Positions 109 to 15,275 of a stretch of 64,000 bases of DNA are shown here, piece by piece. The stretch is from Bacteroidales bacterium. GTDB lineage: Bacteria > Bacteroidota > Bacteroidia > Bacteroidales > VadinHA17. Where the stretch lies: the NCBI GenBank assembly GCA_029210565.1, contig JARGFQ010000017.1, positions 2,798-66,797 of the forward strand. The letters run 5' to 3'. The position numbers and the translations under genes were made by a program. The notes beneath the pieces were generated by a model that searched no databases, was not told the origin of the DNA, and saw nothing but the letters and a program-made list of their open reading frames with translations. The stretch's first letter is position 1. The number at the start of each line of letters is the position of its first letter.

Positions 109-438
109 TTACATGTTTATAACACCGGTTTGCACCAGGTATTTCACAGTCTTGCCGGTTTCGACCGCATAATTGATCTCCCTTCGGGTTGATTCACCGA
201 CATAACCGCCTGGGTTGATGACAAATATCTCGTCGGCCAGATCAATTTTGCGGAGATGCATGTCGTCAAGCATTTTCTTATTGTCATTTTCATATACTTC
301 AGGATCTCCGGAATGGCCAAAGAGACCGACACTGATTACAATGTTCCCTTCGAGCGTCAGGCGCTTCTCTTCAGCAATGTATTGCTCTTTGAACCGTGTA
401 CTGCCGCAGAGGGTGATGATCTTATATTTACCTATCAT
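109..438 (-). CDS. Small nucleoside 2-deoxyribosyltransferase-like superfamily protein (function unknown)
   Basis: 109-aa ORF. KIITLCGSTRF near the N-terminus and GGYVGESTRREINYA near the C-terminus fit my recollection of the NDT-like Rossmann-type fold (not searched). Its ATG overlaps the Fic stop codon as ATGA (435-438). Confidence 0.5.
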   Translation of the reverse strand: MIGKYKIITLCGSTRFKEQYIAEEKRLTLEGNIVISVGLFGHSGDPEVYENDNKKMLDDMHLRKIDLADEIFVINPGGYVGESTRREINYAVETGKTVKYLVQTGVINM

Positions 439-1559
439 ATGATGTCATTTTTGTAAAGGAGATAGCTGGTACTTCGTCCTCCGGAGGGATTCTTCCCCAG
501 GATACTCTTATTCAGCAGGTCCTGGATGTCCCTGAGTGCCGTGTCCTGGGAACATTTGGCAATCTTGGCCCATTTTGAGGTTGTCAGGTTTCCTTCGAAG
601 TCGTCCAATAATTTGTTTATCATGAGTCGCTGCCTGTCGTTCAGAGCCACAGGCGCCAATTTTGCCAGGAACCAGTGCTTATCCAGGACTTTTGACAGGA
701 TTACTTCGGAAGACCGAAGCGCACCCTCCAGGCACTTTAAATACCAGGTCATCCATTCAGTGATATCAAGAGACCCTTTTTGTGTCTTTTCCAGAATATC
801 GTAATATTTTTTTCTGCCGGCTCTGATCTGTGCTGACATGCTGTAGAAACGGCGTGGTGAATTGTCAGATCTTGTCAGCAGCATTTCTGACAGGGCACGT
901 GCTATCCTGCCGTTTCCGTCTTCAAAGGGATGTATTGATATAAACCAGATGTGAGCTATTGCAGATTTGATAATCAGGTCTTCTTCCGTTTTCCTGTTAA
1001 ACCATTCAAGAAATGCCTTCATATCTTTATCAACATCAGCTGCAGGCAGCGCCTGGTAATGGACTCTTTCTTTTCCAAGGGCTCCTGATACAACCTGCAT
1101 TGGTCCGGTCGAGTCATCACGCCAGTTACCCACGACTATCCTGTACATACCGCTCCATCCTGAAGGGAAGAGAGCGGAATGCCAGCCGAACAACCGGTCG
1201 GCTGTCATAGGATTTTGATATTTCTGGGTGGCATCGAGCATCATTTCCACTATTCCATCAACATTCCTGTCGTACGGCATGAGACCTGGGATCTCTATTC
1301 CCAGCCTTACTGCTATTGAAGACCTTACCTGATCAAGGTTCAGAATCTGGCCTTCGATTTCAGAGGTTTTAGTTACCTCGAGGGCCAGTGTTTCAAGGAC
1401 AGCCTCATTCCTCAGCCGAAATCCCAGGGCTTCCATTTTCCCTGTCAGTTTACCCTGCAGGTGCCTTACAGCAGCCAAAGGCTGAATAATGGTATTATTG
1501 TCCCATCTGAAAGCCGGCCAGTCTGTTTGCTGATAGATGTATTTTTTCATTCTACGCAA
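435..1559 (-). CDS. Fic family protein (AMPylase/adenylyltransferase-type), class with internal inhibitory helix
   Basis: Canonical Fic motif HPFEDGNGRIARAL (HxFx[DE]GNGRxxR). N-terminal WPAFRWD segment is DUF4172-like. TSEIEG matches the [ST]xxxE[GN] auto-inhibition motif. C-terminal tail looks like a winged helix. Confidence 0.9.
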   Translation of the reverse strand: MRRMKKYIYQQTDWPAFRWDNNTIIQPLAAVRHLQGKLTGKMEALGFRLRNEAVLETLALEVTKTSEIEGQILNLDQVRSSIAVRLGIEIPGLMPYDRNVDGIVEMMLDATQKYQNPMTADRLFGWHSALFPSGWSGMYRIVVGNWRDDSTGPMQVVSGALGKERVHYQALPAADVDKDMKAFLEWFNRKTEEDLIIKSAIAHIWFISIHPFEDGNGRIARALSEMLLTRSDNSPRRFYSMSAQIRAGRKKYYDILEKTQKGSLDITEWMTWYLKCLEGALRSSEVILSKVLDKHWFLAKLAPVALNDRQRLMINKLLDDFEGNLTTSKWAKIAKCSQDTALRDIQDLLNKSILGKNPSGGRSTSYLLYKNDII

Positions 1560-1622
1560 TATATGCGGTAAATATAAGATTTAATCTCCGCAAAACCAAA
1601 ATAATAACCGCATATTATGCGG
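1555..1622. promoter_or_regulatory. Two related palindromes upstream of the Fic gene (candidate operator pair)
   Basis: CGCAATATATGCG at 1555-1567 abuts the Fic start codon. The perfect palindrome CCGCATAtTATGCGG lies at 1608-1622. Both sit in the 127-nt spacer between the helicase stop and the Fic start. Confidence 0.3.
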
Positions 1623-1686
1623 ATAATATTGACATAATTACCGGAGGGGGCGACTCAACACGAATGTGGTTTAGATGCAGATTTTG

Positions 1687-4600
1687 TTATCTGTTCCTCT
1701 CAAAGAACAGTTCAGGCAGAATAATCTTTGCCTCCTGTCCGGTTTCTTCTTTCGTCCAGTGTACTATGAAATTCACTTTGGCGCTTTTCAGGTCGTAGCC
1801 TTTGTCTTTCAGCTCTGACAGTTGCTTCTTTAACTGCTGTGAGTATTTCAACACGGATTGCCCTTCGGAGTTTAAACACTCTTCTCCGTTTGCGATCAAT
1901 GAGTCTCCGCCAGTAAGTTTGTTGACCAAATGCTGTCTGTTTATAAAATAGTCGAGCCATACATCCCTGAATCCCGGTTGCATAGCCACTTCTGCCGCCG
2001 GCGAATGGATCTCCCTGTTTAGGACCTTCTCCATATTACCAGCAGACAGGGTGTCGAGTAAATCCGAATTGAGATGTATGGTCAGGTTCCGCTTTGCCCT
2101 TGTCATGGCAACGTACAGAAGCCGTTTGGCTTCGTCAGTTGCCGGGTTAAAATCTTCGAGCATCAGGAACACATTGTCAAACTCTTTCCCCTTTGCCTTG
2201 TGAATAGTGGAAACGAGGATTGTCTCCCCATTCTCACCATAGAAATCTTCCAGCTTCGATTCCCGGATGAAGATCTCCAGATCTGACTTGTACTTCATCT
2301 TTGGGTTGGCAGTCTCAAAATCCCTGATGAGATTCCTGCACAATTCATATTTAGTGCTGCGGCGGCATCTCTCTGCCAGTGCACGCTTTGCATTTTCCCA
2401 GGCTTCATCGGTGATATTAACAATGTTGCCGGCAATGCCCTGCTGGCTCAAAAAGTACCTGATCTCATCGAGATTGAACAGATTGAATCCGTCGTTACTT
2501 TGGATCAGTTTGGCTGGCATCCCGTTTCTCAGTAGGAGTCCTGTAATCTGCAATGCTTCGTCATTGGTTCTGGTGAGTGCACAGGTGGTTCCTGAAAGTT
2601 CGGTTTCGAGCAGATCCTGCACGAACGGAACGATCAGATTTCCGTTATCATGACGAACCAGTTTTATTTTTCCGTTGTCAGGTTGCCGGGCAACAATGGG
2701 TGTACTTTTTAACCTGTGACTTATCCCAGTCACGAATTGATTGGTGAAAGCAACGAGGTTGCTCTTGCTCCTGAAGTTATCAATCAGCTCATATCTGGCT
2801 GCCTGATGCACCCTGATAAACTGCTCAAGGAATCTTGAACTTGATCCCCTGAACTCAAAGATATTCTGATCGTCATCCCCAACGGCAATCACTCTCATCT
2901 CTTCATTATGCTCTATCAGCGCCGCTATCAGGCTGAACTCATCCTCGTCCATGTCCTGTGCCTCGTCAATTACCAGGACTGTCTTCGTGATACGGCTGGC
3001 CTCGACCTCCTTGTTTTTTATCTTCTCAACGGTTTTCTTCAGGATATCATCGGACTTCTCAAGGTTGCCAACCTTTCCCAGAAGATCAAAACAATACGAA
3101 TGGAATGTTTTTATCTCAATGAAGTTGGCTGCGTTGCCAACGAGACTGATCAGCCGCTTCTTGAATTCCGTAGCTGCCGCTCTTGAGAAAGTAAGCATCA
3201 GCAGCTGTTCATGCTTGACATCTTCCATCAGCAGGAGGGAGGCAAGCTTGTGAACCAGCAACCTGGTCTTACCGCTGCCCGGTCCTGCTGCAACGACAAT
3301 GTTTTGTGCAACATTGTCTTTAATAATGTTCAACTGTGCGGGGGAGAGCTCACCAAACAATTGCCGGAACTTTGCGGGCGTCAGGCTGCGTGCCATATCA
3401 TCCTGCCTGCCCCTGAAATATTTGTGAAGGAAAGACGGGTAGTTCAACCGGAAATAGTCTTCAACAAACTGCAGGGCATCCCTGTAATCACTGAGCATTT
3501 TCCTGGCATACTCTCCGACTATATGAATCTGCTGGACCTTGTTCTCATAAAACCGGTTCAGACTATGATAATCCTCAACTGTGTACCTCTTCCTATTGTC
3601 CTGTTCAAGTCTTTCAACCGTCAGGCTGTTGTATACAACCAAAAAGCCACCTTCAATCTTGATTGCGTCAATCCTTGACAGCCAGAAAAGAGTGTCTTCA
3701 ATCTCTTCTAGCGATACCTCAGTCTGGAAAAGTCCCTGCTGCCGCCCGTATTCCGTTTTCAGTTCCAGAACCGAAAACTCGGCCAGCACCTCTTCCTTCC
3801 CGACATCCTCTTCAGACAGATCGCGGTTACTCTTTTCATAGAGAAATTCAACTACGAACCTTGCCAGGTCAGAGCGCTTTCTTACTCGTTCAATCAGCAT
3901 TTCCCGCGGATGAAGGCTGACAATTGAAACATGATTTTTCGAAAACTCCAGGTTCTTGCGCTTAATCCAGTTTTTGATTGCCCAGAAGTTGATGACGGTT
4001 TTGATCCTGCTGACATTTGACCCATCGCAGCCCTGTGCCTCAGCCGCCTCGTTTAACTCCTTGAGCTGAAACGTTTTCTCCTGTTCGTCAATAGCCTGAA
4101 CCAAGCATTGTTCAATCTTGCTGAACGACTCGACGATGTTAAGGGACCTGTTCCTGTATTCCCCTCTCCTTATGAATGCTGTCAGATCCTTTGCGTCAGC
4201 CAGTATCTTCTCCTCGCGAAGGAGGTTGACAATATTTATCACCTCCTCCTTCACTATCCCGAGATGATCACTGATGTAATCGATTCTTGATTCAGCAGCT
4301 TCGCCGGTAGCATGCTTCCTGCTTTTGCTAGAAAAGAGTTTTCTGATAATTCTGACTGCTTGCTGCTTCTGCCTCTCATTAAACCTTGACGATGCATATA
4401 TTTTTTCAATGGCTTCCTGCGCATTCCGCGAAAGGATACTGTTGGCAAAAATGCGAGGCATGTTCTGTCCGCGTTTGAGATAGCCGGCATCTTCCAGTGC
4501 GGCAATCGCGGTCTTAACCCTTGTTTCAATCTCGTAGACACTGTCGTCCCATCCTGCCTTCCGGGCAATCTCCAGGGCAGAGTTGGATACCGACGAGCGG

Positions 4601-6525
4601 AACCTGGTGATCTCCTTTATAGCTTTCCATACCTGCTGTATCTCCTTGATTGAAAGCTTGGTCTGATTCAGAAGGATGAAGTGTTTGTTCAGGTCTTCCT
4701 CGTTATAAAGGACGAAACAATCAGCTACTATGTTTTCATCCCGGCCTGCCCTGCCTGCTTCCTGTATGTAGTTCTCGAGAGAGTCGGATATCTCATAGTG
4801 CACCACCATGCCCACATCCTTTTTGTCGACACCCATTCCGAAGGCAGAGGTAGCAACCATGACTGAAACATCACCTGAGATGAAAGCTTCCTGGTTGGCT
4901 GTTTTTTCATTCACATCCATCCGGCCATGGTATGGTTTGGAATTCAAACCATCTTTGGTCAGCCGTTCTGCCAGCTGGTATGCCTTTCGCGTCCTTGAGA
5001 CATATATGATGGCCGGACAATTCCTCTCTTCAATCAGAGCCCTCAACGCCTGATACTTTTCTTCTTCGTTTCCTTTTTCAAAAACCTTATACTGGAGGTT
5101 TGTCCTGGATACTTTTGATTCAAAAACTACGAGATCAAGTGAGAGCTTTTCGCTGAAGTAGTTGCGGATATCATCAATAACCTGAGGCTTTGCCGTTGCC
5201 GTGAAGCATGATACCGGAATTTCTTCCGTGAGGTTTTTTTTCTCCTGAATGGACCTGATGAAATCAGCAATATACAGATAGTCGACCCTGAAATCCTGTC
5301 CCCATGCCGATAGACAATGCGCCTCATCGACAACAAAACGGACGATCTTTCTTCCAAGGAGAAGTCGTTCTATTGTACGGGAGCGCAGCGATTCGGGTGC
5401 GATGTAGAGAAGAGAGGCTGAGCCATCCTCGACCCTCTCAAAGGATTTTGCCCTTTCAATCGGGTCGAGCAAACCGTTAATCGTAACTGCGCGTGTGATA
5501 CCGGCTTTATCCAGGTTGTCCACCTGGTCTTTCATCAGTGATTGCAGGGGAGAGATAACCACTGTCAGTCCCTGTGCATTGTCGCCGCTCATCAGGGCAG
5601 GTACCTGGAATGCAAGCGACTTCCCGCCACCGGTGGGAAACACCGCGAGAAGGGACTTATTGTCAAGCGCAGCCCTTACAGCCTTCTCCTGCAGTGGTTC
5701 ACCTCCGAAAGTTTTATACGAATCAAAGCCGAAATATCTTTTCAGCCCCCTGTGTACATCCAAAGCATTGTTGCAATAGGTGCAGCCGCTTAAACAGGGT
5801 CTGTTTCGCAAGCGGAACATTATCTGTTCGACTTCAGGGTAGTTTTTCATGACCCATGGCGGAGTGACAGATCTTTTTTCGGGGTGACGGATGAAAGAGT
5901 CAATGAGAGAAAGACAATAAGCAAGTGCAACCGGTTGTGTTTCAATTACTCCTGCGAGGTCAGCCTGTTCGCACATTTCAGTTTCAAATTTCCTCCGAAT
6001 CAGTTTTTCAGGATCTGTCTCAGCACTTTTATATCCGATGAATCGAAAAAAGGCTTGAAACTCCGGTTTGTTATTTAGCAGGAGACAGAAGATCTGTTTA
6101 AGGGTTTCATTAGTCTGTTTGAAATGGGTAACCTCGTTATAGAACAGATCTCTGGCCTTGATGGAATCATTCAGGGGGTTGTTGGTGTCATCCGATTGCA
6201 GCTTATCGTCTTTCAGAAGTGCATGATAAGGCTTTGAAGGGAAGAGCAAAGGTGAAAGAAAGAGAGTGTCAATGATGTTTGAAGATTCTATTCCCGCTTC
6301 GGCCAATGTCTTGCCGATATATTTAATGTCGTGTTTTAGAATGTTATGTCCGCATACGAATTTTGTGCCGGCAAGAAAACTGATGAACTCCGTCACAGAG
6401 CCTTTATGGAAGGTGCCGCCATCGCCTCTGATACTTCCGATGTCAATTATCTTCAGGCTTTTTGGGTCAATTTCTGTGTCAACGAATGCAACAGGAATCA
6501 TTTCTTGCGGATATTCTTTTATCAT
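1687..6525 (-). CDS. Triple-fusion DEDDh exonuclease + RecQ (SF2) helicase + UvrD/PcrA-type (SF1) helicase, 1612 aa
   Basis: Exonuclease: FVDTEID and GHNILKHDIKY. RecQ: PTGGGKSLAFQVPAL, VVDEAHCLSAWGQDFRVDY, TSAFGMGVDKKDV, QEAGRAGRD. UvrD: AAGPGSGKT, VLVIDEAQDMDEDEF, TIHKAKGKEFDNVFL, LYVAMTRAKRNL. All lie in one uninterrupted frame. Confidence 0.9.
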   Translation of the reverse strand: MIKEYPQEMIPVAFVDTEIDPKSLKIIDIGSIRGDGGTFHKGSVTEFISFLAGTKFVCGHNILKHDIKYIGKTLAEAGIESSNIIDTLFLSPLLFPSKPYHALLKDDKLQSDDTNNPLNDSIKARDLFYNEVTHFKQTNETLKQIFCLLLNNKPEFQAFFRFIGYKSAETDPEKLIRRKFETEMCEQADLAGVIETQPVALAYCLSLIDSFIRHPEKRSVTPPWVMKNYPEVEQIMFRLRNRPCLSGCTYCNNALDVHRGLKRYFGFDSYKTFGGEPLQEKAVRAALDNKSLLAVFPTGGGKSLAFQVPALMSGDNAQGLTVVISPLQSLMKDQVDNLDKAGITRAVTINGLLDPIERAKSFERVEDGSASLLYIAPESLRSRTIERLLLGRKIVRFVVDEAHCLSAWGQDFRVDYLYIADFIRSIQEKKNLTEEIPVSCFTATAKPQVIDDIRNYFSEKLSLDLVVFESKVSRTNLQYKVFEKGNEEEKYQALRALIEERNCPAIIYVSRTRKAYQLAERLTKDGLNSKPYHGRMDVNEKTANQEAFISGDVSVMVATSAFGMGVDKKDVGMVVHYEISDSLENYIQEAGRAGRDENIVADCFVLYNEEDLNKHFILLNQTKLSIKEIQQVWKAIKEITRFRSSVSNSALEIARKAGWDDSVYEIETRVKTAIAALEDAGYLKRGQNMPRIFANSILSRNAQEAIEKIYASSRFNERQKQQAVRIIRKLFSSKSRKHATGEAAESRIDYISDHLGIVKEEVINIVNLLREEKILADAKDLTAFIRRGEYRNRSLNIVESFSKIEQCLVQAIDEQEKTFQLKELNEAAEAQGCDGSNVSRIKTVINFWAIKNWIKRKNLEFSKNHVSIVSLHPREMLIERVRKRSDLARFVVEFLYEKSNRDLSEEDVGKEEVLAEFSVLELKTEYGRQQGLFQTEVSLEEIEDTLFWLSRIDAIKIEGGFLVVYNSLTVERLEQDNRKRYTVEDYHSLNRFYENKVQQIHIVGEYARKMLSDYRDALQFVEDYFRLNYPSFLHKYFRGRQDDMARSLTPAKFRQLFGELSPAQLNIIKDNVAQNIVVAAGPGSGKTRLLVHKLASLLLMEDVKHEQLLMLTFSRAAATEFKKRLISLVGNAANFIEIKTFHSYCFDLLGKVGNLEKSDDILKKTVEKIKNKEVEASRITKTVLVIDEAQDMDEDEFSLIAALIEHNEEMRVIAVGDDDQNIFEFRGSSSRFLEQFIRVHQAARYELIDNFRSKSNLVAFTNQFVTGISHRLKSTPIVARQPDNGKIKLVRHDNGNLIVPFVQDLLETELSGTTCALTRTNDEALQITGLLLRNGMPAKLIQSNDGFNLFNLDEIRYFLSQQGIAGNIVNITDEAWENAKRALAERCRRSTKYELCRNLIRDFETANPKMKYKSDLEIFIRESKLEDFYGENGETILVSTIHKAKGKEFDNVFLMLEDFNPATDEAKRLLYVAMTRAKRNLTIHLNSDLLDTLSAGNMEKVLNREIHSPAAEVAMQPGFRDVWLDYFINRQHLVNKLTGGDSLIANGEECLNSEGQSVLKYSQQLKKQLSELKDKGYDLKSAKVNFIVHWTKEETGQEAKIILPELFFERNR

Positions 6526-6841
6526 TTAGAAAGATACGGATGTGCAGTTATTAATACAAACCTTCCTGTTATTGTTTTTATTATGTGACAGAAGCCGGTT
6601 TGTGTTGTTGTACGGCATGTTCAGATCAGAGGATGATAAATGAATTCCTCCGGATTATTCGCTCACAAGTTTTAAAACAATATCTTTGCAGTATTGCATC
6701 AGGAACCCTTTAATGGGTACCAACCGAGTTGACACCACGGTGGTAAAGCGATGCGGGCAGTCTGCCAAAAATGTTAAAACCAAAGACTTCCGGATTGCAC
6801 TGATGCTAAGATTAGTGTTTAACCAATTAACTATTTGTATT

Positions 6842-7132
6842 ATGGAGAATGAGATCAGAGCAAACTCAGAGCCGGAGACCGTAAATGAAGAGGCGGTTTC
6901 CTTTTATAACACACTGAGAATGGTAAAGCCGACAACCTACAATCAATCCATGGCTGAAGGAGAGCTAAGGATGTACGTAAAAAGACAGGTCATTGAGACA
7001 TGGGAAAAGCTTCTTTACTGGCAGTCAGTATACCTTGAAGAGGTCAGGAAGGGCGAAGGGACCATGGGCCACAAAGTTGGCAGCATAAGAAACCAGCAGA
7101 TTGGGCTTCTGAATCTGTTCAAAAGACTGTGA
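6842..7132 (+). CDS. Hypothetical small protein (96 aa from MENEIRAN)
   Basis: Open frame divergent from the helicase gene with no recognisable motif. The longer 6686 start adds an implausible N-terminus. Confidence 0.35.
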   Translation: MENEIRANSEPETVNEEAVSFYNTLRMVKPTTYNQSMAEGELRMYVKRQVIETWEKLLYWQSVYLEEVRKGEGTMGHKVGSIRNQQIGLLNLFKRL

Positions 7133-7389
7133 TTGAGATCCCTGTTTGGTCCGTCAAATACCTGAAGCTTTAATGCTATGGCAATCCATCCCTTGGACTC
7201 TGAAACGAAAAGTCACTCAGTGATAAAAACCAGTACAGGAATGGTGATCAGCTGGAAATGTGCGCCCTTCTACCTCGTATCCTCCATACTGTGGAGGGGC
7301 TCTATACGATATATAATGAGGTTTTAGGATAAGCCTGGATATCCAATAAATTAGAATTGCCCTAAGGTAATTCTGCCCTATATGGTGGG

Positions 7390-7543
7390 TTACCCGATTA
7401 ATTTTTCAATGGTGGACTTTAATTTGGGCAGATGAGCGGGTAGTATAGCCTTACAGGTCATCGGGACCTGTTTCAAAGAAAAGATAAATTTCATCTATGG
7501 CTATTTTGATGTCATAGAGACACTTAAGCACTTTCTCGCTCAT
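7390..7543 (-). pseudogene. HepT (DUF86) toxin remnant, internally deleted and frameshifted
   Basis: The minus strand from 7543 reads MSEKVLKCLYDIKIAIDEIYLFFETGPDDL then stops at 7451-7453. A second frame reads AILPAHLPKLKSTIEKLIG then stops at 7390-7392. These look like the N- and C-termini of a DUF86 protein with the HEPN core missing. The start overlaps the MNT gene by 20 nt, as in intact MNT-HepT pairs. Confidence 0.55.
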
Positions 7544-7835
7544 AGACCAGCTTTTTCTCTCTATCAAGAACTTTTCTGAAGATTGGATTTCTGACAGCCT
7601 GGTTTTCGACCAGGGCCACTGGCCTTTTCAATAAAGCTTCCAGCTTTTCTTTGAAATCCATATAGTTATTAAAGTACTCCTGAATGTCTACCAGCCTGAA
7701 TTCAACCAGAAAATCAATATCGCTTTCATCATTAAACTTATCCGTCAGCACAGATCCGAATAAATAGAGTTCCCTGACCTTGTGGCGTTTACAGAGTTTG
7801 ATGATTTGATCGGTATTTCTCTCTATGATATTCAT
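7524..7835 (-). CDS. Nucleotidyltransferase-domain protein (MNT-type antitoxin)
   Basis: 103 aa carrying LFGSVLTDKFNDESDIDFLVEF, the GS...DxD minimal nucleotidyltransferase signature. Confidence 0.85.
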   Translation of the reverse strand: MNIIERNTDQIIKLCKRHKVRELYLFGSVLTDKFNDESDIDFLVEFRLVDIQEYFNNYMDFKEKLEALLKRPVALVENQAVRNPIFRKVLDREKKLVYERESA

Positions 7836-7952
7836 GTAACAAAGATAAGAAACTTCATCGATAGGGAATTCTACTTTTCATTACACCCAACTCATTTATA
7901 AATTCTCATGGATTGATCAAAAAAATTATTTATGAATGCATTATTTCATTGA

Positions 7953-8864
7953 TCAATACTGCTTTGAGAACAGGGTGTTGTGGATCAGATCAGTGTTGCG
8001 CGTGAGACTGAACCCTATCAGCCGGTCAGTTTCAACCAAGTTAAGAGTTCCGGCTCCGGGATGGGCCTCTTCAACCTTACGGCCGGCATCGGCGAACTCG
8101 TCAAGGGCTTCGAGAGTCTTGAAGTACGCTTCGTGCATGCCGGTCTGCTTCTTGTCAACGCCGGGAAGGGAGAGGGTGAATGCGGCATCGCGGAGCATCG
8201 GGAAATAATACCGGTAAGATTCTTCATTACCGAAGAGGTCGGCCGAGATCACCTTCCCGTCAAGAAGCACGGCCAGACCGTTGCAGCCTTCCGCGGGATT
8301 GCATTCCGGGAAGGTCCGCTCTGCCTTTGCCAGCCTGTGGTGAAGCAGCTCTTCGTAACTCTCGGTCTGACTCCTTAAACCCTCGCATACCAGGCTGGCC
8401 CTGACATGATCCCAGACCTCGCCCTGGGTGCTATGGAAATCCATCTCATGCTCAGGTTTCTTTCTGGAGAAGGTCCCGGCCTTCCTGCTCCGAAGTTCGG
8501 GATCAGCCACCGATCCGGGTGTGCTGAACGAGGTCGACCTGTAGTTCCAGCGGAGCCGTTCCACGCAGGAGACCTCGATGACGGTCTTGCCCGAAGGGGC
8601 CAGCAGGACCGACCGGTTGACAACCCTGTTCTGCTTGGCGCCGGTGAGAACGTCGGCATCGGTGAGGAGGAGGTAATCAGCCGTGTTGTTGAGGGCAGTC
8701 AGATGACCGACGGAACCCGTGGCCGTCAACTCGGAGATGATAAGTCCGCCGCTCATGATGGCCGGTCCTGCCGGTTTGAACGGGAATGATGTGAGAGGCT
8801 CGCTGCTGACCTGCACGAGGGCTGCATTACCGAAAGCTGTGAAATGGATCGCTTTTGTGTTCAT
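7953..8864 (-). CDS. DUF6569 / ARPP-1-like family protein
   Basis: 303 aa. LLLTDADVLTGAKQNRVVNRSVLL and EVSCVERLRW match my recollection of the GAKQNR...VSCVE.GRW core of this family (not searched). Confidence 0.55.
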   Translation of the reverse strand: MNTKAIHFTAFGNAALVQVSSEPLTSFPFKPAGPAIMSGGLIISELTATGSVGHLTALNNTADYLLLTDADVLTGAKQNRVVNRSVLLAPSGKTVIEVSCVERLRWNYRSTSFSTPGSVADPELRSRKAGTFSRKKPEHEMDFHSTQGEVWDHVRASLVCEGLRSQTESYEELLHHRLAKAERTFPECNPAEGCNGLAVLLDGKVISADLFGNEESYRYYFPMLRDAAFTLSLPGVDKKQTGMHEAYFKTLEALDEFADAGRKVEEAHPGAGTLNLVETDRLIGFSLTRNTDLIHNTLFSKQY

Positions 8865-8908
8865 GGTTTCATTCAGTTTTTAAATAGTTATTTAATTGGT
8901 CGAATGGT

Positions 8909-8963
8909 ACTTGCATGAAATTTATTTTTCAGATTCTTTCTATGGTATCATGCTCATGCAAGT
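8909..8963. promoter_or_regulatory. 10-bp inverted repeat in the divergent ARPP-1/HTH intergenic region
   Basis: ACTTGCATGA (8909-8918) and TCATGCAAGT (8954-8963) are perfect reverse complements separated by 35 nt. Confidence 0.25.
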
Positions 8964-9054
8964 TTCCTAACTCGTTTTTAATTGTTATTTTTAGACTTTG
9001 AGGCAAAGAAAAACCACCACATTGCACCCTATCTGCAATTAGAAATTAATTATC

Positions 9055-9654
9055 ATGCCGTCCAACCTGAATGCACTGATAAGATACAAGACCATCAACT
9101 CATGCCTCTTTGGAGGAAAACGGAGGTGGTCGATAGACGAGCTGATGGAGAGATGCTCGGAGGCGCTGGCCGAGAACCGCGGAAAGTATACCAGCGTCTC
9201 GGAAAGGACCATCAGGGATGACCTGCGAGTCATGCGAAGCGACATCCTGGGGTTTAATGCCCCGATTAAGCAGGAGGGAGGGCTATACTTCTATTCCGAC
9301 CCGGGGTATTCGATTCTGAGCCTGCGCATCACCGACACCGGGCTGGCGGAGCAGATTTTCTACCTGCTGATGAGGATAAGGAGCAGGGAAAGTCTTCCGG
9401 AGCTGGAAATAATCCTGCAAAGGTTATGCGGGTTGCTGGGCAGGAAGTATGAACCAGTCTATGTGAAGAGCGGCAAGGTGGAATTAAGCGAGATTTCGAC
9501 TCAGGACAGTTTAATGTCCCCGATGGAGGAGGATGCGAAGTATGATTTGAATGTCAGGTCCGCGAAGGTGCATGCATCACGGAACATCATAGCATTCAGG
9601 TCCATGAAGCAGAAGCACGAGTTGCTGTGGGGAGATGTTCTGGGAGCTATTTAG
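9055..9654 (+). CDS. HTH transcriptional regulator (HTH_11/PafC-N-like N-terminus)
   Basis: The N-terminus NLNALIRYKTINSCLFGGKRRWSIDELMERCSE...SERTIRDDLRVMRSD looks like a DeoR/WYL-regulator-type winged HTH. The C-terminal half is unassigned. Confidence 0.55.
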   Translation: MPSNLNALIRYKTINSCLFGGKRRWSIDELMERCSEALAENRGKYTSVSERTIRDDLRVMRSDILGFNAPIKQEGGLYFYSDPGYSILSLRITDTGLAEQIFYLLMRIRSRESLPELEIILQRLCGLLGRKYEPVYVKSGKVELSEISTQDSLMSPMEEDAKYDLNVRSAKVHASRNIIAFRSMKQKHELLWGDVLGAI

Positions 9655-9808
9655 CAGTTAGTTGCTCCGTATCACGGCACGAATGTGCACTGTCACGCCC
9701 ACCGCGATAAAAATTCTAAACTTTTTTAAAGCCATAAAACTCCTTCCCCGGTCCTTCCCCGGTGGGTTGGGTCATTTTTATCGGAGGGAAAACACTCCCC
9801 GGCCAGGG

Positions 9809-10333
9809 TTAATCGATTTTGTCTCTCAACCTTCCGATTTCGATACTGATGAGGGGCATGAAAAGAGTTTTTTTGGAATTGATATTGCCTTGCAAGTCCA
9901 AGCCTATGCTTAAAAAGTGAAGCGGAATGAATTTAAAACCTGTTTTCAATACCAATCCGGCTGTGGCTATACCAGGCTCAGAAGGGTCAGATTCTCCAAC
10001 TTCCCAAAGTGCGGCAATTCCTCCCTGGAGCTCAATCCTGAATAACTTTTCGCCGTAGTATTTGCCTGCCATTAGCCCTACTTGCTGGTAAATATCTTCT
10101 ATAGCCAACGAATAGCCTATTTCCTCCAAATGGAAGAAATCTATCGAAAACAACCATCCGTTGCGCAGGTAATTAGCTTCAACACCCAATACTGCTCCAT
10201 TCTCCTCGTCCGGACACAAAAAAATTCCCCCTTTGGGATTAATTGAAAACCCTGTTGTCTGACTTTGCGAAAACGCGGGTGCGCATGATAATAACAATGC
10301 TATACCCAAGGAGGGAAGTAAATAGCTTTTCAT
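9809..10333 (-). CDS. Small secreted protein, possible outer-membrane beta-barrel
   Basis: Signal peptide MKSYLLPSLGIALLLSCAPAFSQ followed by alternating hydrophobic beta-strand-like pattern. Confidence 0.45.
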   Translation of the reverse strand: MKSYLLPSLGIALLLSCAPAFSQSQTTGFSINPKGGIFLCPDEENGAVLGVEANYLRNGWLFSIDFFHLEEIGYSLAIEDIYQQVGLMAGKYYGEKLFRIELQGGIAALWEVGESDPSEPGIATAGLVLKTGFKFIPLHFLSIGLDLQGNINSKKTLFMPLISIEIGRLRDKID

Positions 10334-10463
10334 CTTTTTGAATTTGTATTGGGGTTTGATTGTATCTTCTTCAATTGCTCAGACGGGTTAGTCATTCCGG
10401 AGAGGAAGGTAAGCAAAAATGTAGTCAATTAAATGTCCGGCAAATTATTGCAGGATCGGGATG

Positions 10464-11483
10464 CTATATTCCGAAAATCACCCTGTGCCGGTCCGTGCAG
10501 AACAGTCTGGCACGGTCAAGGGTTGTCTCTGTAAAACGTATTTCATCTCCTGGCCGCATCTGGGCGAGGAGGGTGAAGTCAGCAGTGATGACATTGGCTA
10601 TGCGTGCATAGCCGCCGGAGGTCTGGCGGTCGGCCATCAGGATGATGGGCTGGCCATCGCCGGGGACCTGAACGGTGCCCAATGAAATACCTGCCGAGAT
10701 TATGTTGGTCATTCCTTCCTTATGTTTAATCGGCTCGCCTGAGAGCCGGTAACCCATGCGGTCGCTCTTGGTGGTCACCGTGTACTCTGTTGAAAGGAAA
10801 CTGCGTAATCCGGCTAGCTCAAAATAATGGACCTCGGGACCGGAAATGACCCTGATGGTCTGCTCATGCTTGTATTCTGGTATCAATCCTTCGGGGATCT
10901 TTGTGCGCCGTGGTTTCCTCTTGGCTTTGCCCAGAGTCAACCCGTCGCTCGGGAGGAGATCAGTGGCCTCACCCGGCGGTAGTTCATTGCCCGGGAGAAG
11001 GGCATTATATGTACCTAATGGCAGTTCGTCTCCCTGTATGAGCCCACGGCCCTGAAATCCTCCTATCCCTGCTCTTAGGTATGTCGACTGGCTGTCCATC
11101 ACGGATGGAACGGCTATCCCTCCGGCAAAGGCTATATAAGTTCTGCAGCCGCTCCTCAAACCCCTGAACCCGAGCCTGTCACCTGGTCTGACATCAACAG
11201 CAGTATTCATCGGGATGCCCTGGCCGTTGAGGTGGGGGTCCCAAACGGCTCCGGTAATTGCTATCCAGGTTGAACCTGTGAACTCAAGCTCCGGGCCGGA
11301 GATTGTCGCCTCGAGGCAGGCATCGCCGGGATCGTTACCCACAAGCAGGTTGGCCAGCTCGAGGGAGAAAACATCCATCGCACCGGAAACGGGCATACCA
11401 TACCGCTGGTAACCAAACCTCCCCCTGTCCTGAACCATGGTCAGCAATCCTGCCTTATGTACGATTACCGTCGCCATTGTCAA
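10464..11483 (-). CDS. pxpC: 5-oxoprolinase subunit C (KipA / allophanate hydrolase subunit 2 family)
   Basis: 339 aa with PGLLTMVQDRGRFGYQRYGMPVSGAMD and the C-terminal GGYARIANVITADF...RPGDEIRF typical of the family. Lies in operon order after pxpA and pxpB. Confidence 0.85.
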   Translation of the reverse strand: MTMATVIVHKAGLLTMVQDRGRFGYQRYGMPVSGAMDVFSLELANLLVGNDPGDACLEATISGPELEFTGSTWIAITGAVWDPHLNGQGIPMNTAVDVRPGDRLGFRGLRSGCRTYIAFAGGIAVPSVMDSQSTYLRAGIGGFQGRGLIQGDELPLGTYNALLPGNELPPGEATDLLPSDGLTLGKAKRKPRRTKIPEGLIPEYKHEQTIRVISGPEVHYFELAGLRSFLSTEYTVTTKSDRMGYRLSGEPIKHKEGMTNIISAGISLGTVQVPGDGQPIILMADRQTSGGYARIANVITADFTLLAQMRPGDEIRFTETTLDRARLFCTDRHRVIFGI

Positions 11484-12210
11484 TCTTTTGGGTTCGTCTG
11501 ACCTGGTACGTGCCGTCAGCCACCCCGGCAGCTATCTGCTCAAACTCATCCTTATCGATAGGATAAAACCTGATGTAATCGCCGGCATTGAAGAGAAACT
11601 CGGGCTTGCTGTCGGGATTGAAAAGTCGCAGCGGAGTTAGGCCTATCAGCTGCCATCCGCCGGGACTCTCCATGGGGTAGATCCCTGTCTGCTCGCCGGC
11701 GATGCCTACCGAGCCGGCAGGGATCTTCAGTCGTGGTGTCTCCTGTCGTGGAGTGGCAATGCGTTTGTCCATTCCCCCGAGATAACAGAAGCCGGGAGTG
11801 AAACCAAGCATGTAAACGAGGCAGTCCGCGGAGCTGTGTATCCTGATAACATCCTCCTCTGCAAGGCCGTTATACTCTGCAACATAATGGAGGTCGGGAC
11901 CCTCCTCGCCGCCGTAGAGCACAGGCACATGAACTACCCCCGCATCGGGCAGAGTCATGGCACCGAGATCGGCAGCACACTTTTTAAAGATTCCGAGCAG
12001 CTGCCTGTAATCGACCGTCACCGGGTCATAACAGACCATCAACTCATTGTACGATGGGATGAAGTCGGTGACACCCGGGATGTTCTCCTCCTCAAACCTC
12101 GCCAGCAGCTTCCTGACGACCAGGTTCACCTCCTCCGAGATCACATCGCCGGCCTTGATTATGAATGCCGAGTCGCCCGAGGGAATATATTTAAGGGTCA
12201 CCTCCTTCAT
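11455..12210 (-). CDS. pxpB: 5-oxoprolinase subunit B (KipI / allophanate hydrolase subunit 1 family)
   Basis: 251 aa with GDSAFIIKAGD...VTDFIPSYNELMVCYDP...GFTPGFCYLGG...PAGSVGIAGEQTGIYP. Confidence 0.85.
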   Translation of the reverse strand: MKEVTLKYIPSGDSAFIIKAGDVISEEVNLVVRKLLARFEEENIPGVTDFIPSYNELMVCYDPVTVDYRQLLGIFKKCAADLGAMTLPDAGVVHVPVLYGGEEGPDLHYVAEYNGLAEEDVIRIHSSADCLVYMLGFTPGFCYLGGMDKRIATPRQETPRLKIPAGSVGIAGEQTGIYPMESPGGWQLIGLTPLRLFNPDSKPEFLFNAGDYIRFYPIDKDEFEQIAAGVADGTYQVRRTQKIDNGDGNRT

Positions 12211-12302
12211 TTTAATGTCACCGGTTTATTGGCATTGTCACCTCGCCCATTTAAACATCTCCGGATTAATCTCAATGTCACCCCCTCCATAACATAATCC
12301 TG

Positions 12303-13064
12303 TCAATCCTTCAGCGGTGGTCTTATCGAGATCCCTTCTGCCTTCAGCGCCTTAGCCAGCTTCCTGACAAACTCCACGGCAGTCTCGTTGTCGCCGTGGA
12401 TGCAGACGGTCTCTGCCTCAATCGGTATAAGCTTCCCGGTGACGCTCTCCACCACCTTCTCGCGTATCATCCTGAGGACCCTGCGGATCATCACCTTCGT
12501 GTTGTGCAGCACGGCGCCCTCAACGGATCGTGCGACGAGCGTGCCGTCGTCGTTGTATGCCCTGTCGGCAAACACCTCCGACGCGCAGGCGAGGCCAGCG
12601 TTCCTGGCAGCCCTGATCAGCTGCGAGCCCGACAGTCCCACCAGCACCAGCGAGCTGTCGAGGTCCTTCACCGCCCGGACGATGTTCATCGACATGTCAT
12701 AGTCGGTTGCGGCGGTGTTGTAGAGTGCGCCGTGGGGCTTGACGTGCCGCATGCGTGCTCCTGCCGCTTCGGCCATCGCCTTGACAGCCCCCGCCTGGTA
12801 GAGTATCATCGCCCGCAGCTCCCTGGGACTCATCGTCATGGGCTTACGGCCGAAATTCTCACGGTCGGGGTACCCCGGGTGCGCCCCGATGCTCACACCG
12901 TTCCTTATGGCTGAGCGCAGGGTCTGCTCTATCGTCAGCGGATCGCCTGCATGAAACCCGCAGGCAATGTTGACGGAGGAGATGAAGGGCATGATTGCCT
13001 CATCGTTGCCGGGCCCGTCTGTCGGGCTCGTCTCGCCGAGATCACAGTTAATGTCGATATACAT
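12303..13064 (-). CDS. pxpA: 5-oxoprolinase subunit A (LamB/YcsF family)
   Basis: MYIDINCDLGE...NIACGFHAGDP...IGAHPGYPDRENFGR...VKPHGALYN is a classic LamB/YcsF signature. Start taken at M23 of the listed ORF. Confidence 0.9.
   Translation of the reverse strand: MYIDINCDLGETSPTDGPGNDEAIMPFISSVNIACGFHAGDPLTIEQTLRSAIRNGVSIGAHPGYPDRENFGRKPMTMSPRELRAMILYQAGAVKAMAEAAGARMRHVKPHGALYNTAATDYDMSMNIVRAVKDLDSSLVLVGLSGSQLIRAARNAGLACASEVFADRAYNDDGTLVARSVEGAVLHNTKVMIRRVLRMIREKVVESVTGKLIPIEAETVCIHGDNETAVEFVRKLAKALKAEGISIRPPLKD
12771..13064. repeat. Direct repeat copy 1 (5' third of pxpA)
   Basis: About 294 nt aligns without gaps and with only scattered mismatches to 14982-15275 in the same orientation. Similarity ends at the ATG. 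Confidence 0.9.
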
Positions 13065-13426
13065 TGTCACTTTCCGGGTATTAGCGTACCTGTTCACGAT
13101 ACAGAAAGTAAATGTAGGAAAAAGGCTCAAATACGGAGAGATCAGAGATCAGTTCTTCCTCCCGTGGCTTAAGGTTTGGTGACCAAGTCTAACAATTAAG
13201 TGCCATTTTTCCGGCCTGCTGCACTTTGAACCAGAGGCGGGCTATAATAATCGGCCCTGGCGTTTGTCAACGGGGCTCCGAAACGCTCCATTGGAGATTG
13301 TTGGAAAAAGTTGAACTCTCCAACTGTTTGGCAAACAATATTTAAGAATCCCTAAAACCTGTATCAGGTAATTTCCCCGACAATTAATGATATTTGCAAA
13401 TTCTTCCATGTTTGAGGGAGTCCGCA

Positions 13427-14005
13427 TTAGAACCGGGGGAGTCCGTAGTTTCGCTTTGCCAATTGTTTATTAACCATGGAAATGTCAAAATCCCTATGGT
13501 CGAAATTCCCTCCAAGCCAGGTAATGAAGCTTTCGTATTCTCTATTATTGGGATTTCGCAGGACCTTTAACATTCTCATGTAACCTCCCATTCCTCCTAC
13601 ATTTTCGGGTGGACATTTCATGGCGCCATCAGTGCAGACCGGGTATTTAACATCTGTATCCGGTTTAAGAAACTTCTCCAACAGTATTTCATGCATCCAG
13701 CCATCCCCAAAATCATATTCATAGATGATTGTATTTTTAACGAAACGCAATAACTTATTTAGTTTAAGCCCTTTATAGTCCACATTATTCATCTCCTCCC
13801 ATAAATCATCATCAGGCATTTTTTCAGTATAGAAGACTTCGTCCTTTATGAATTGATGCAAATGCGAATTTGTCCAACCCATAGTGGTCTGTATGATTTT
13901 GTGAAGATCTGAGAGAAGTATGTCCTCCTCTACTAAAATCCTGCGCCAGATTCTGGGCCTTGATTCAATTAAAGTGATTCTGAGCTGATAAATCCAATTA
14001 CCCAT
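13427..14005 (-). CDS. pRiA4b ORF-3-like (MM3350-like / IS1096 passenger TnpR family) protein
   Basis: IYQLRITLIESRPRIWRRILVEEDILLSDLHKIIQTTMGWTNSHLHQF is the hallmark N-terminus of this family. Confidence 0.8.
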   Translation of the reverse strand: MGNWIYQLRITLIESRPRIWRRILVEEDILLSDLHKIIQTTMGWTNSHLHQFIKDEVFYTEKMPDDDLWEEMNNVDYKGLKLNKLLRFVKNTIIYEYDFGDGWMHEILLEKFLKPDTDVKYPVCTDGAMKCPPENVGGMGGYMRMLKVLRNPNNREYESFITWLGGNFDHRDFDISMVNKQLAKRNYGLPRF

Positions 14006-14106
14006 TTTTAACGGTAGTGTCTGATTAAAATAATAAAAGAAGGGGTACTCCCCGAAGGTTCCCCCCCCGATGCTGTAATTTGGTTTTTGCGAAAATCAAC
14101 TACAAC

Positions 14107-14280
14107 ATGGGTAAAATTACACAAATAAATTTTGTCGGACAACCGATTTTCAATCAGATAATGAATTTGGCAGAAAAAGTGGATATAAATGGTCTGATAA
14201 GCATGCTTGCTGTAAATGAGCTATTACGGAGTAAAAAACGGCTTGTAAGGAGCAGCTCAATACCCCCTGGTTTGCAATAA
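14107..14280 (+). pseudogene. Possible N-terminal fragment of a DUF4372/IS4-type transposase
   Basis: MGKITQINFVGQPIFNQIMNLAEKVDINGLIS resembles the (F)xGQPxxxQLLxxIP opening of DUF4372 transposases. The frame ends after 57 aa with no DDE domain. Confidence 0.3.
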
Positions 14281-14433
14281 TCCTTTAACGTGCAGGGGGT
14301 CAGTTTTTAAAATCAAAATATGGTAATTGATAATCAAATATCCCGGTATCCCGATCATAATCCCTTTGGTTGTTTTGGTAAACAATTAAGGATATAATCA
14401 GTGAGATAGTTTTAGAAAACGAAAATAATCATA

Positions 14434-14541
14434 ATGAAATTTTTCAGGGTCCCACTGAAAGCATCCTTGCCTGCCTACGGTTACCAGTCAGATAACCGGT
14501 GGAAAGTAATTGTAAATTCAGAAATTGTTCTGGAAGAATGA
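14434..14541 (+). pseudogene. AbiEi-like antitoxin C-terminal remnant
   Basis: 35-codon frame ending ...SDNRWKVIVNSEIVLEE. Its TGA overlaps the AbiEii ATG (ATGA at 14538-14541), the usual AbiEi/AbiEii junction. Confidence 0.35.
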
Positions 14542-14795
14542 TACCACAACAATTTATCACAGAATGGGCTGAAACCGTCCGATGGAAGGCCAATGAACAG
14601 GTGGAACAGGACCTGTTAATCTGCCGGTCATTAGTTGAATTGTTTTCAGATGGTGTTATTTCGGGAAAACTTGCATTCAGAGGGGGGACAGCCTTACATA
14701 AACTTTTCCTTCCACAATACAGATATTCTGAGGATATAAATCTTGTACAGATATCAGCTGAACCATTTGGTCCCTCAATGGACAGGATGAAATGA
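14538..14795 (+). pseudogene. AbiEii/AbiGii-family nucleotidyltransferase toxin, N-terminal fragment only
   Basis: MIPQQFITEWAE...QVEQDLLICRSLVELFSD...LAFRGGTALHKLFL matches the family N-terminus. The frame terminates after about 85 aa, whereas my recollection is that the family is roughly 250-300 aa. Confidence 0.7.
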
Positions 14796-14867
14796 GTCAA
14801 AATCTACTGTTTTTCTTAATGCTCCGGCATAAGTCTGTGACAAAAAAGCCGGAATATCAATCTGACT

Positions 14868-15275
14868 TCACCGCCCTGTCATAATGAGTAATGAGATGCT
14901 GTGCCACTTCCACTGACGTTTCCCTGAAAAGGATTTTATCTCCCGGCCGTATCTGGGCGAGACCCGCGTCCTTGCCGTCTCGGCCATCGCCTTGACAGCC
15001 CCCGCCTGGTAGAGTAACATCGCCCTCATCTCCCTGGGGCTCATCGTCATGGGCTTCCGGCCGAAATTCTCACGGTCGGGGTACCCCGGGTGCGCCCCGA
15101 TGCTCACGCCGTTCCTTATGGCTGAGCGCAGGGTCTGCTCTATCGTCAGCGGATCGCCCGCATGAAACCCGCAGGCAATATTGACGGAGGAGATGAAGGG
15201 CATGATTGCCTTATCGTTGCCGGGCCCGTCTGCCAGGCTCATTTCGCTGAGATCACAGTTTATGTCGATATTCAT
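14868..15275 (-). pseudogene. pxpA'-'pxpC deletion-fusion remnant
   Basis: The first ~98 codons are near-identical to pxpA (MNIDINCDLSE...AGAVKAMAE). Downstream, another frame reads LAQIRPGDKILFRETSVEVAQHLITHYDRAVKSD. That parallels the C-terminus of pxpC (LAQMRPGDEIRFTETTL...). The rest of pxpA, all of pxpB and most of pxpC are missing. Confidence 0.8.
14982..15275. repeat. Direct repeat copy 2 (5' third of pxpA)
   Basis: Partner of 12771-13064. Here it keeps the native 12-nt spacing to the upstream NRAMP gene. Confidence 0.9.

Follow-up and report, generated by a model that had tools for sequence, protein, structure and literature searches.

A single chain joining a DnaQ-like exonuclease-type domain to RecQ-type and UvrD-type motor cores: a mobile bacterial gene with a candidate role in immunity

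Within a window of 64,000 nucleotides from a Bacteroidales bacterium of the VadinHA17 lineage (GenBank assembly GCA_029210565.1, contig JARGFQ010000017.1, positions 2,798 to 66,797 of the forward strand), the longest open reading frame (ORF) of its region encodes a protein in which a DnaQ-like 3′-5′ exonuclease-type domain precedes two DNA motor cores, one RecQ-type core of helicase superfamily 2 (SF2) and one UvrD/PcrA-type core of superfamily 1A (SF1A). No internal stop interrupts the frame (Table 1). Sequence comparisons indicate that the gene is passed horizontally as a lone ORF. We tentatively interpret its product as a stand-alone nuclease-dual-helicase that would, as the product of a single gene, confer innate immunity against the DNA of phages or plasmids.

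Domain architecture of the protein

An initial annotation of this DNA, made from the sequence alone, had proposed a DEDDh exonuclease, a complete RecQ core and a complete UvrD/PcrA core in one chain. All three modules were recovered in that order, although each of the first two required correction. The chimeric join against which the annotation had cautioned is excluded because the same architecture recurs in hundreds of independent assemblies; the architecture is genuine and no assembly artefact. All of the best 120 among more than 8000 homologues are 1593-1618 amino acids long with 98-100% query coverage. An identical protein of 1604 amino acids is held by NCBI under the label 'RecQ family ATP-dependent DNA helicase' and comes from a Bacteroidales metagenome-assembled genome, on a 459-kb contig whose end lies about 4.5 kb from the window start. 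It begins at Met9 (ATG at 6501), and since homologue alignments begin at about residue 9-12, this methionine is the likelier true start, giving 1604 amino acids.

A few copies are broken. On Nostoc punctiforme pNPUN02 (locus L010 of our collection, 7824-12842) the gene is split into three ORFs, whose individual annotations read RecQ family helicase, UvrD-helicase domain protein and '3′-5′ exonuclease', and the metagenomic homologues P0125, P0127, P0162 and P0163 carry large internal deletions, as expected from occasional decay. A shorter stable exonuclease-RecQ architecture was considered and rejected, as the matches of 700-1300 amino acids were truncations or internal deletions.

In residues 1-270 no Pfam model, those of RNase_T and other exonucleases included, gave a match at E≤10, and a single-sequence search of PDB sequences with the N-terminus gave no match. 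Profile searches, on which the initial annotation had made its three-module claim depend, thus literally failed for the exonuclease; the module was then recovered in four other ways. A profile of 34 N-termini compared with the PDB retrieved DEDDh exonucleases, namely 9l8b (E 4.8e-4), the PolC exonuclease 2p1j (E 8e-3) and DnaQ 8h18. The AlphaFold2 (AF2) model calculated from the family alignment, with a predicted local distance difference test score (pLDDT) of 92.4, contains five strands and flanking helices. Its best Foldseek matches were Staphylococcus aureus DinG (8zef/9ii8; E 2.2e-4), family-B and T7 polymerases, REXO2/Orn and RNase AS, each a known exonuclease protein of DnaQ fold; model and matches together identify the RNase H-like α/β fold of the DnaQ superfamily. 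NCBIfam and PHROG models gave coherent matches to 3′-5′ exonucleases and polymerase exonucleases, all far below their cut-offs. When residues 1-270 were searched against 1.84 billion representatives of 50% identity clusters, 1161 clusters from at least five phyla were returned at E≤1e-3; among the best 150 of these, 51 representatives exceed 1400 amino acids, with N-terminal identity to the query going down to 34%.

The family motifs are D16-x-E18, G59-H-N61...D66, D86-T-L, H101-x-L-x-K105 and N115-N-P117-x-x-D120. Among 34 homologues of 35-58% identity no exchange occurs at D16, E18, N61, D66, D86, L88, K105, P117 or D120, and hardly any at H60, H101 and N115. The four carboxylates of the superfamily are all present, D16 and E18 in the Exo I motif D-x-E, D66 in Exo II (N-x3-4-D) and D120 as the Exo III aspartate. 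The same residues are kept in homologues of 28-49% identity from Sulfitobacter, Allochromatium, Nostoc, Aliarcobacter and Bacteroides finegoldii, and in Proteobacteria, Cyanobacteria and Campylobacterota the acidic tetrad stays unchanged even where identity falls to 28-35%. However, the catalytic histidine of DEDDh enzymes, located five positions before the Exo III aspartate (H-x4-D), was not found: of the 34 diverse homologues at least 90% have asparagine (Asn115) at this position and the others Ser, Cys or Pro, and Asn115 aligns with the histidine of 9l8b and 2p1j. Fold and carboxylates of the proposed DEDDh domain therefore stand, while the histidine and a Pfam match do not. Judged from its sequence, the domain is a DnaQ-fold 'DEDD-Asn' variant with an HxLxK signature of its own and no textbook DEDDh exonuclease. 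As the metal ligands are invariant, we infer that it is catalytically active. In five pairs of homologues its ratio of nonsynonymous to synonymous substitution rates (dN/dS) was 0.06-0.18.

The all-helical domain that follows contains four conserved cysteines, of which C185, C248 and C251 are invariant and C244 is present in at least 90% of the 34 homologues; the homologues of Nostoc and Aliarcobacter lack them. The cluster may form a zinc or iron-sulphur site. A radical-SAM reading of CxxxCxYC at 244-251 was rejected on account of the all-helical fold of the domain and of a first spacing that ranges from 2 to 5 in the homologues.

The RecQ-type core is preceded by about 260 extra residues and followed by about 970. 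It is covered by the Pfam families DEAD (277-452) and Helicase_C (489-595), and the NCBIfam model TIGR00614 (recQ_fam) exceeded its cut-off of 219.8 bits with a score of 278.7 over residues 261-626, aligning over model positions 3-349 of 470. Motif 0, PTGGGKS, DEAH with the aromatic-rich loop SAWGQDFR, and QEAGRAGRD were all identified; DEAHCLSAWGQDFR is likewise present, so that the SF2 core motifs 0-VI, the aromatic-rich loop and the family model agree. The best PDB sequence matches were RECQL5 and Escherichia coli RecQ, both at about 1e-55, followed by BLM, RECQ1 and WRN. With a family model above its cut-off, the protein can be assigned by sequence to the broad RecQ family. The RecQ equivalog model remained below its cut-off (320 versus 640) and aligned only at model positions 5-364 of 591. 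No cysteine cluster was found in residues 600-700, where a zinc-binding four-cysteine subdomain would follow the core, and Pfam detected no HRDC domain in the chain. The AF2 model places a winged-helix-like unit directly after the core, for which the Foldseek matches were weak and of generic winged-helix type, with no RQC domain among them. The 'complete' RecQ of the initial annotation is thereby reduced to a motor core with its aromatic-rich loop.

Between the two motors lie 415 residues without any Pfam match. They had been described as a helical linker of about 380 residues; a helical bundle is indeed predicted, but in the AF2 model it is preceded by about four winged-helix-like units. The structural matches of this region are weak and generic but consistently of winged-helix type, and it presumably serves as a DNA-binding array and spacer.

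The second motor, claimed as a UvrD/PcrA core, was upheld by PDB matches and by Pfam matches over residues 1061-1486. UvrD-helicase (PF00580, 110.7 bits), UvrD_C (PF13361, 80.8 bits) and AAA_19 (PF13245, 78.3 bits) exceed their gathering scores, and the Q motif LSPAQ is accompanied by motifs I-VI (AAGPGSGKT, VIDEAQD, VGDDDQNIFEFRG, NFRS, TIHKAKGKEFD and YVAMTRAK), which are conserved in the family. UvrD1, PcrA, UvrD, Rep and GajB were the best PDB matches (1e-26 to 1e-14). The sequence thus supports membership of the UvrD-like SF1A superfamily. Orthology to a particular member was not found at the equivalog cut-offs (pcrA 120.7 versus 911, uvrD 103 versus 1144, rep 81 versus 951, helicase IV 100 versus 543). 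The last 122 residues had no match in Pfam, NCBIfam or PHROGs and showed the highest dN/dS of the chain in four of five pairs (0.10-0.43). No further nuclease was found in the 415-residue region or the C-terminus with Pfam, NCBIfam and PHROGs, supplemented for the former by structural matches. Downstream of the stop codon, a terminator-like hairpin with a T-run suggests that the helicase gene forms its own transcription unit.

Distribution, horizontal transfer and genomic neighbourhood

Close relatives were found in at least 565 GTDB species genomes, complete chromosomes included, a count that is a lower bound because it derives from a single-protein query and covers close relatives only. Finished plasmids carry homologues of 1599-1756 amino acids with the same Pfam layout, and full-length plasmid homologues occur in Bacteroides/Phocaeicola, Aliarcobacter, Nostoc, Paracoccus, Rhizobium, Cereibacter and Allochromatium, with Proteobacteria, Cyanobacteria and Campylobacterota thus represented. 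On pACIB the gene adjoins parA/parB/rep and a type IV secretion system (T4SS) coupling protein, and on a B. finegoldii plasmid it lies near two ssb genes and parA/parG. Viral collections yielded one locus among 2.9 million viral contigs (IMG/VR), and no full-length homologue was present in 50,697 phage records. The gene is thus a host-side gene, essentially absent from these collections.

The single viral-contig copy (L096; IMGVR_UViG_3300044580_000446, 536-15094) is 52% identical and located at a contig end beside a C5 cytosine methylase. Beyond the methylase follow an S24/LexA-type (CI/LexA-type) repressor, a helix-turn-helix (HTH) gene, HNH, SNF2 and a primase-helicase, which together resemble a prophage replication module.

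All modules are under purifying selection. In the five pairs, dN/dS was 0.08-0.14 for the whole gene and 0.03-0.43 per module, with all but one value at or below 0.22. Synonymous divergence (dS), however, varied about tenfold between modules within pairs (L052 versus L065, L058 versus L035 and others), for example from 0.07 in the winged-helix region to 0.76-0.81 in the cysteine and C-terminal domains. Differences of this size between modules of the same pair indicate intragenic recombination between diverged alleles.

Several observations point to horizontal transfer. The neighbour-joining gene tree conflicts with taxonomy, grouping Arenibacter with HGW-Bacteroidetes-4, Weeksellaceae with Chitinophagaceae and Zhouia with Fulvivirga, and placing a Sphingobacterium within Flavobacterium. 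In five of eight pairs from different families or classes, nucleotide identity of 84-93% extends over the ORF and no more than 160 bp beyond it (in L017 versus L020, 93% identity extends over 9920-14830 only); the remaining three pairs have some further flanking sequence in common. The G+C content of the gene is below that of its flanks in 53 of 64 loci, by a mean of 3 points. In the window it is 46.6%, compared with 51.1% for the remainder, so that the A+T-richer stretch noted initially is real, if modest in extent of difference. Because of the discordant tree, the ORF-bounded identity, the mosaic dS, the lower G+C content and the plasmid copies in several phyla, the gene is, as far as sequence comparison can tell, horizontally mobile as a lone ORF. 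Contigs of at least 50 kb end less than 5 kb from the gene in 10 of 48 cases (2.8 expected, P about 2e-4), an excess that would be expected if the gene lay next to repeated or strain-variable DNA. No direct or inverted repeats flanking the gene were found in the window, nor did 76 loci have any conserved non-coding sequence on either side of it.

To survey the neighbours, the ORFs up to 10 kb on either side of the gene in 80 species-level loci were all compared with one another and clustered. The helicase was the sole family common to 78 loci; the next commonest family occurred in 5 loci at varying positions, and no conserved partner gene was found among the 78. A recurring integrase, relaxase or transposase family was likewise lacking in the 80 loci, and six neighbourhoods inspected singly were all completely different. 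The absence of a conserved neighbour, the discordant tree and the end of identity at the ORF borders together speak against a housekeeping gene in core synteny, the alternative that the initial annotation had named. A type I restriction-modification system adjoins the gene in Hydrotalea and Allochromatium; elsewhere HigB/HigA, VapBC with IS66, or a NERD protein with a DEAD helicase were found next to it.

The neighbours in the window were as claimed: a Fic gene with DUF4172, an MNT gene with a truncated HepT remnant, and an ARPP-1 gene. The Fic gene and the 109-codon ORF overlapping it (together 109-1559) suggest a two-gene module, which is absent at the locus of an 82%-identical relative. At that locus the upstream genes are kept, and downstream lie AAA_14, NUDIX, PLD with a DUF3427 helicase, HNH and HIT; the AAA_14 gene directly downstream of the helicase is related to the AAA_14/DUF4143 ATPase gene of the window. 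The MNT gene and the HepT-like stub (7451-7835) would be a decayed MNT-HepT toxin-antitoxin pair. In a related genome (L012, 8306-9218) the ARPP-1 gene is split into ORFs of 181 and 113 amino acids. Beyond the left edge of the window the contig (L011, 16514-19315) carries a WYL-WCX regulator, a YoeB toxin fragment and an HTH_5 gene before it ends, which adds to the island-like character of the region. Further along the window, the two LamB/YcsF copies share 93.8% nucleotide identity over 307 bp and enclose a PRiA4_ORF3-family gene (13427-14005) within an A+T-rich stretch; the arrangement (12303-15275) looks like an insertion or duplication scar.

Table 1. Features of the helicase gene and its surroundings (positions in the window)
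Feature	Position	Strand	Basis or remark
Whole ORF	1687..6525	-	1612 codons plus stop
DnaQ-like (RNase H-fold) 3′-5′ exonuclease-type domain, residues 10-135	6121..6498	-	AF2, Foldseek, profile against PDB, conservation
All-helical domain with four conserved cysteines, residues 136-262	5740..6120	-	Conservation, AF2 model
RecQ-type SF2 motor core, residues 263-640	4606..5739	-	Pfam DEAD and Helicase_C, TIGR00614, PDB matches
About four winged-helix-like units, then helical bundle, residues 641-1055	3361..4605	-	AF2 (pLDDT 78), weak winged-helix matches
Compact UvrD/PcrA-type SF1A motor, residues 1056-1490	2056..3360	-	Pfam UvrD-helicase, AAA_19, UvrD_C; PDB matches
Poorly conserved C-terminal domain, residues 1491-1612	1690..2055	-	No match in Pfam, NCBIfam, PHROGs
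Terminator-like hairpin and T-run, between helicase stop and Fic gene	1608..1622	-	Consensus match only
Fic gene with N-terminal DUF4172	435-1559	-	Pfam
ORF of 109 amino acids downstream of Fic, 4-bp overlap	109-438	-	Begins MIGKYKIITLCGSTRF; no Pfam match
ORF of 38 amino acids after MNT, resembling N-terminal stub of HepT	7451-7567	-	
MNT-type nucleotidyltransferase (Polbeta/NTP_transf_2)	7524-7835	-	
Intact ARPP-1-domain gene, 303 amino acids	7953-8864	-	
LamB/YcsF (pxpA-like), full copy, 275 amino acids	12303-13130		
LamB/YcsF, truncated N-terminal duplicate, 135 amino acids	14868-15275		
AAA_14/DUF4143 ATPase gene, 450 amino acids	16973-18325	+	Weak PD-(D/E)XK_4 match

Proposed role and alternative readings

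On account of its mobility, island signature, defence neighbours and host-side distribution, we favour innate single-gene immunity against phage or plasmid DNA as the role of this nuclease-dual-helicase, with confidence somewhat short of even. The 140 directly flanking ORFs matched 100 PADLOC families at E≤1e-10, compared with 26 mostly generic families for 140 control ORFs at least 6.5 kb away, in a small, uncalibrated sample of naively called ORFs. Among the flanking families were HNH (five times), AbiEii (three times), PDC-S41, PDC-S13, PDC-S04 and type I and type IV restriction-modification. An excess of defence genes near the gene is thus suggestive. The defence role put forward initially gains from these neighbours and from the mobility of the gene, yet it stays a conjecture in view of an unusual conservation and mostly ordinary neighbours.

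RecQ and UvrD/PcrA translocate in 3′ to 5′ direction on single-stranded DNA, UvrD also displaces DNA-bound proteins, and digestion by DEDD nucleases starts at 3′ ends and likewise runs in 3′ to 5′ direction. In the mechanism that we propose, the winged-helix array and the motors would load wherever DNA offers a 3′ single-stranded tail, nick, fork or D-loop. The duplex would be unwound and cleared of bound proteins by both ATP-driven motors, and the N-terminal domain would digest the freed 3′-ended strand. Linear, nicked or branched intermediates of replication or recombination might in this way be dismantled and resected, and the intact circular chromosome would be spared because it offers no such entry points. 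The function would be analogous to end destruction by RecBCD/AdnAB-type enzymes and to the single-gene helicase-nucleases Nhi and Hna.

A number of findings weigh against the proposed immunity function. Conservation (70-75% identity across Bacteroidota orders, dN/dS about 0.1) is far above that of a usual immunity gene. The 140 flanking ORFs span 138 Pfam families, mostly ordinary metabolic or unassigned genes, the PADLOC comparison has the limits given above, and no PADLOC model spans the whole chain. Two plasmid copies lie beside par/rep genes. The bipolar model of RecBCD is not easily transferred to two motors that share one nominal polarity, and the exchange of the general-base histidine for asparagine weakens the claim of nuclease activity. 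A wider proposal is that the protein stands as founding member for a class, pan-bacterial and so far unrecognised, of immunity or DNA-surveillance enzymes that consist of one polypeptide. Such enzymes would combine an SF2 RecQ motor, an SF1A UvrD motor and a 'DEDD-Asn' exonuclease, spread as naked ORFs and, unaided by a partner protein, dismantle replication or recombination intermediates of invading DNA. We consider this possible but doubtful.

The main rival is an accessory genome-maintenance enzyme acting on host DNA in fork rescue, in the disruption of D-loops or illegitimate recombination, or in excision or resection after a nick. We regard this role as rather unlikely by itself, although it is probable that the protein degrades DNA on its own either in immunity or in repair. 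It would account well for three catalytic modules that are all classic repair activities, for the very strong purifying selection and high phylum-wide conservation, for the lack of a toxin-like or sensor domain, and for a gene that is single-copy on chromosomes, mostly among ordinary genes, and absent from phages; its patchy distribution would be comparable to that of LigD/Ku or ImuABC. It agrees less well with the extensive horizontal transfer and mosaicism, with the excess of defence-model matches in adjacent ORFs and with the finding that no repair or replication gene is syntenic in 78 loci. Moreover, of two LexA motifs (PMC8565304), the Bacteroidota motif CTAA-N5-TTAG was found in 0 of 77 upstream regions and GGA-N5-TTC was no commoner there than in the background.

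Cutting across the other role readings is the improbable option that the N-terminal domain is no active exonuclease but a sensor or regulatory module binding 3′ ends or metal, which would leave the protein a mere translocase/helicase or a signalling ATPase. The family-wide exchange of histidine for asparagine at the Exo III position and the silence of RNase_T and other Pfam exonuclease models would be explained in this way, and the pseudo-exonuclease DnaQ folds of Exuperantia and Egalitarian are among the weak Foldseek matches. Conservation of D16, E18, D66, D120, N61 and D86 and of the additional His101/Lys105 pair from Bacteroidota to Proteobacteria is, however, as expected if metal-dependent chemistry is under selection, and the low dN/dS of the domain also speaks against a loss of catalysis.

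There is only a slim chance that the gene serves mobile elements as plasmid or prophage cargo that aids establishment, replication or competition, for example by processing single-stranded DNA as it enters, by countering host nucleases or by excluding rival elements. The full-length homologues on plasmids of several phyla, the par/rep, T4SS coupling protein and ssb genes near two of them and the methylase and repressor abutting the lone viral-contig copy would fit such a service; most copies, however, are chromosomal, no integrase, relaxase or transposase recurs, flanking repeats and conserved non-coding ends are lacking, and phage collections are virtually devoid of the gene. An assembly or gene-calling artefact joining separate exonuclease, recQ and uvrD genes has practically no probability, since apart from the few split or deleted homologues nothing positive was found for it and against it stand the roughly 1600-residue architecture of all 120 top homologues, the 51 long proteins among the 150 best cluster representatives, the species genomes and finished plasmids listed above and the purifying selection that spans every module junction.

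Full-text searches of the literature on this architecture found nothing relevant, and to our knowledge no studied enzyme unites SF2 and SF1 DNA motors and a nuclease in one chain. The proteins are annotated only as 'RecQ family helicase' and constitute a large uncharacterised family. If the gene acts in immunity, it adds a large single-gene system that is missed by current PADLOC models and offers a tractable system for the coordination of two 3′-5′ motors with an exonuclease. If it is a repair enzyme, it represents an unrecognised, horizontally traded genome-maintenance function in Bacteroidota, gut Bacteroides plasmids included. In addition, an exonuclease with histidine replaced by asparagine and a conserved His/Lys pair poses a testable question of nuclease chemistry.

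Comparison with known helicase-nuclease systems

The initial annotation had likened the protein to the Werner helicase WRN. The order of an N-terminal 3′-5′ exonuclease fold and a RecQ motor with aromatic-rich loop is the same, and the WRN helicase core matches at E 7e-39. The exonuclease of WRN, an RNase D-type DEDDy domain, differs from the present domain, which aligns to the DnaQ/PolC DEDDh branch with Asn in place of His, and no WRN exonuclease was among the 50 Foldseek matches listed. Since, furthermore, neither a zinc subdomain nor HRDC was detected and a second, SF1 motor is attached, the sequences argue for an exonuclease-RecQ fusion that arose independently of that in WRN, so that the common layout is convergent. 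E. coli RecQ (1oyw) resembles the motor core (189 bits, E 1.4e-54), in line with the recQ_fam score above cut-off, but differs by the zinc-binding cysteine cluster after the core and by HRDC.

S. aureus DinG, the best structural match of the N-terminal model, likewise combines a bacterial DnaQ-like exonuclease with a following SF2 ATPase. Its exonuclease retains the catalytic histidine; its motor is of XPD/Rad3 type, not RecQ, and it is a conserved chromosomal gene product of about 900 amino acids with one motor.

RecBCD, AddAB and AdnAB also unite two motors and a nuclease in one machine, and the UvrD-like motor weakly matches RecB and AddA. RecBCD also destroys foreign linear DNA. These enzymes, however, are multi-subunit and use SF1A plus SF1B or two SF1A motors together with PD-(D/E)XK nucleases, whereas the present protein is a single chain with SF2 RecQ and SF1A motors and a DnaQ-fold nuclease; Pfam, NCBIfam and PHROGs gave no match to a PD-(D/E)XK (RecB-family) domain anywhere in the chain. 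We know of no Chi-type logic for this family.

Among defence systems, the PADLOC models DpdF (330 bits), PsyrT (271 bits) and GajB (154 bits) match the motor cores, each covering one motor only. GajB depends on GajA and PsyrT on PsyrA, and DpdF belongs to a dpd cluster; no such partner or cluster was found adjacent, as no neighbour family occurs in more than 5 of the 80 loci. Filing the protein under WRN, Gabija, PsyrTA, Dpd or RecBCD was rejected, the defining features of these systems being absent. Nhi and Hna possess one motor and other nuclease folds. The likeness to Nhi, Hna, GajB, PsyrT and DpdF lies in the behaviour of the gene itself, which is stand-alone, appears horizontally mobile and is often located beside defence genes.

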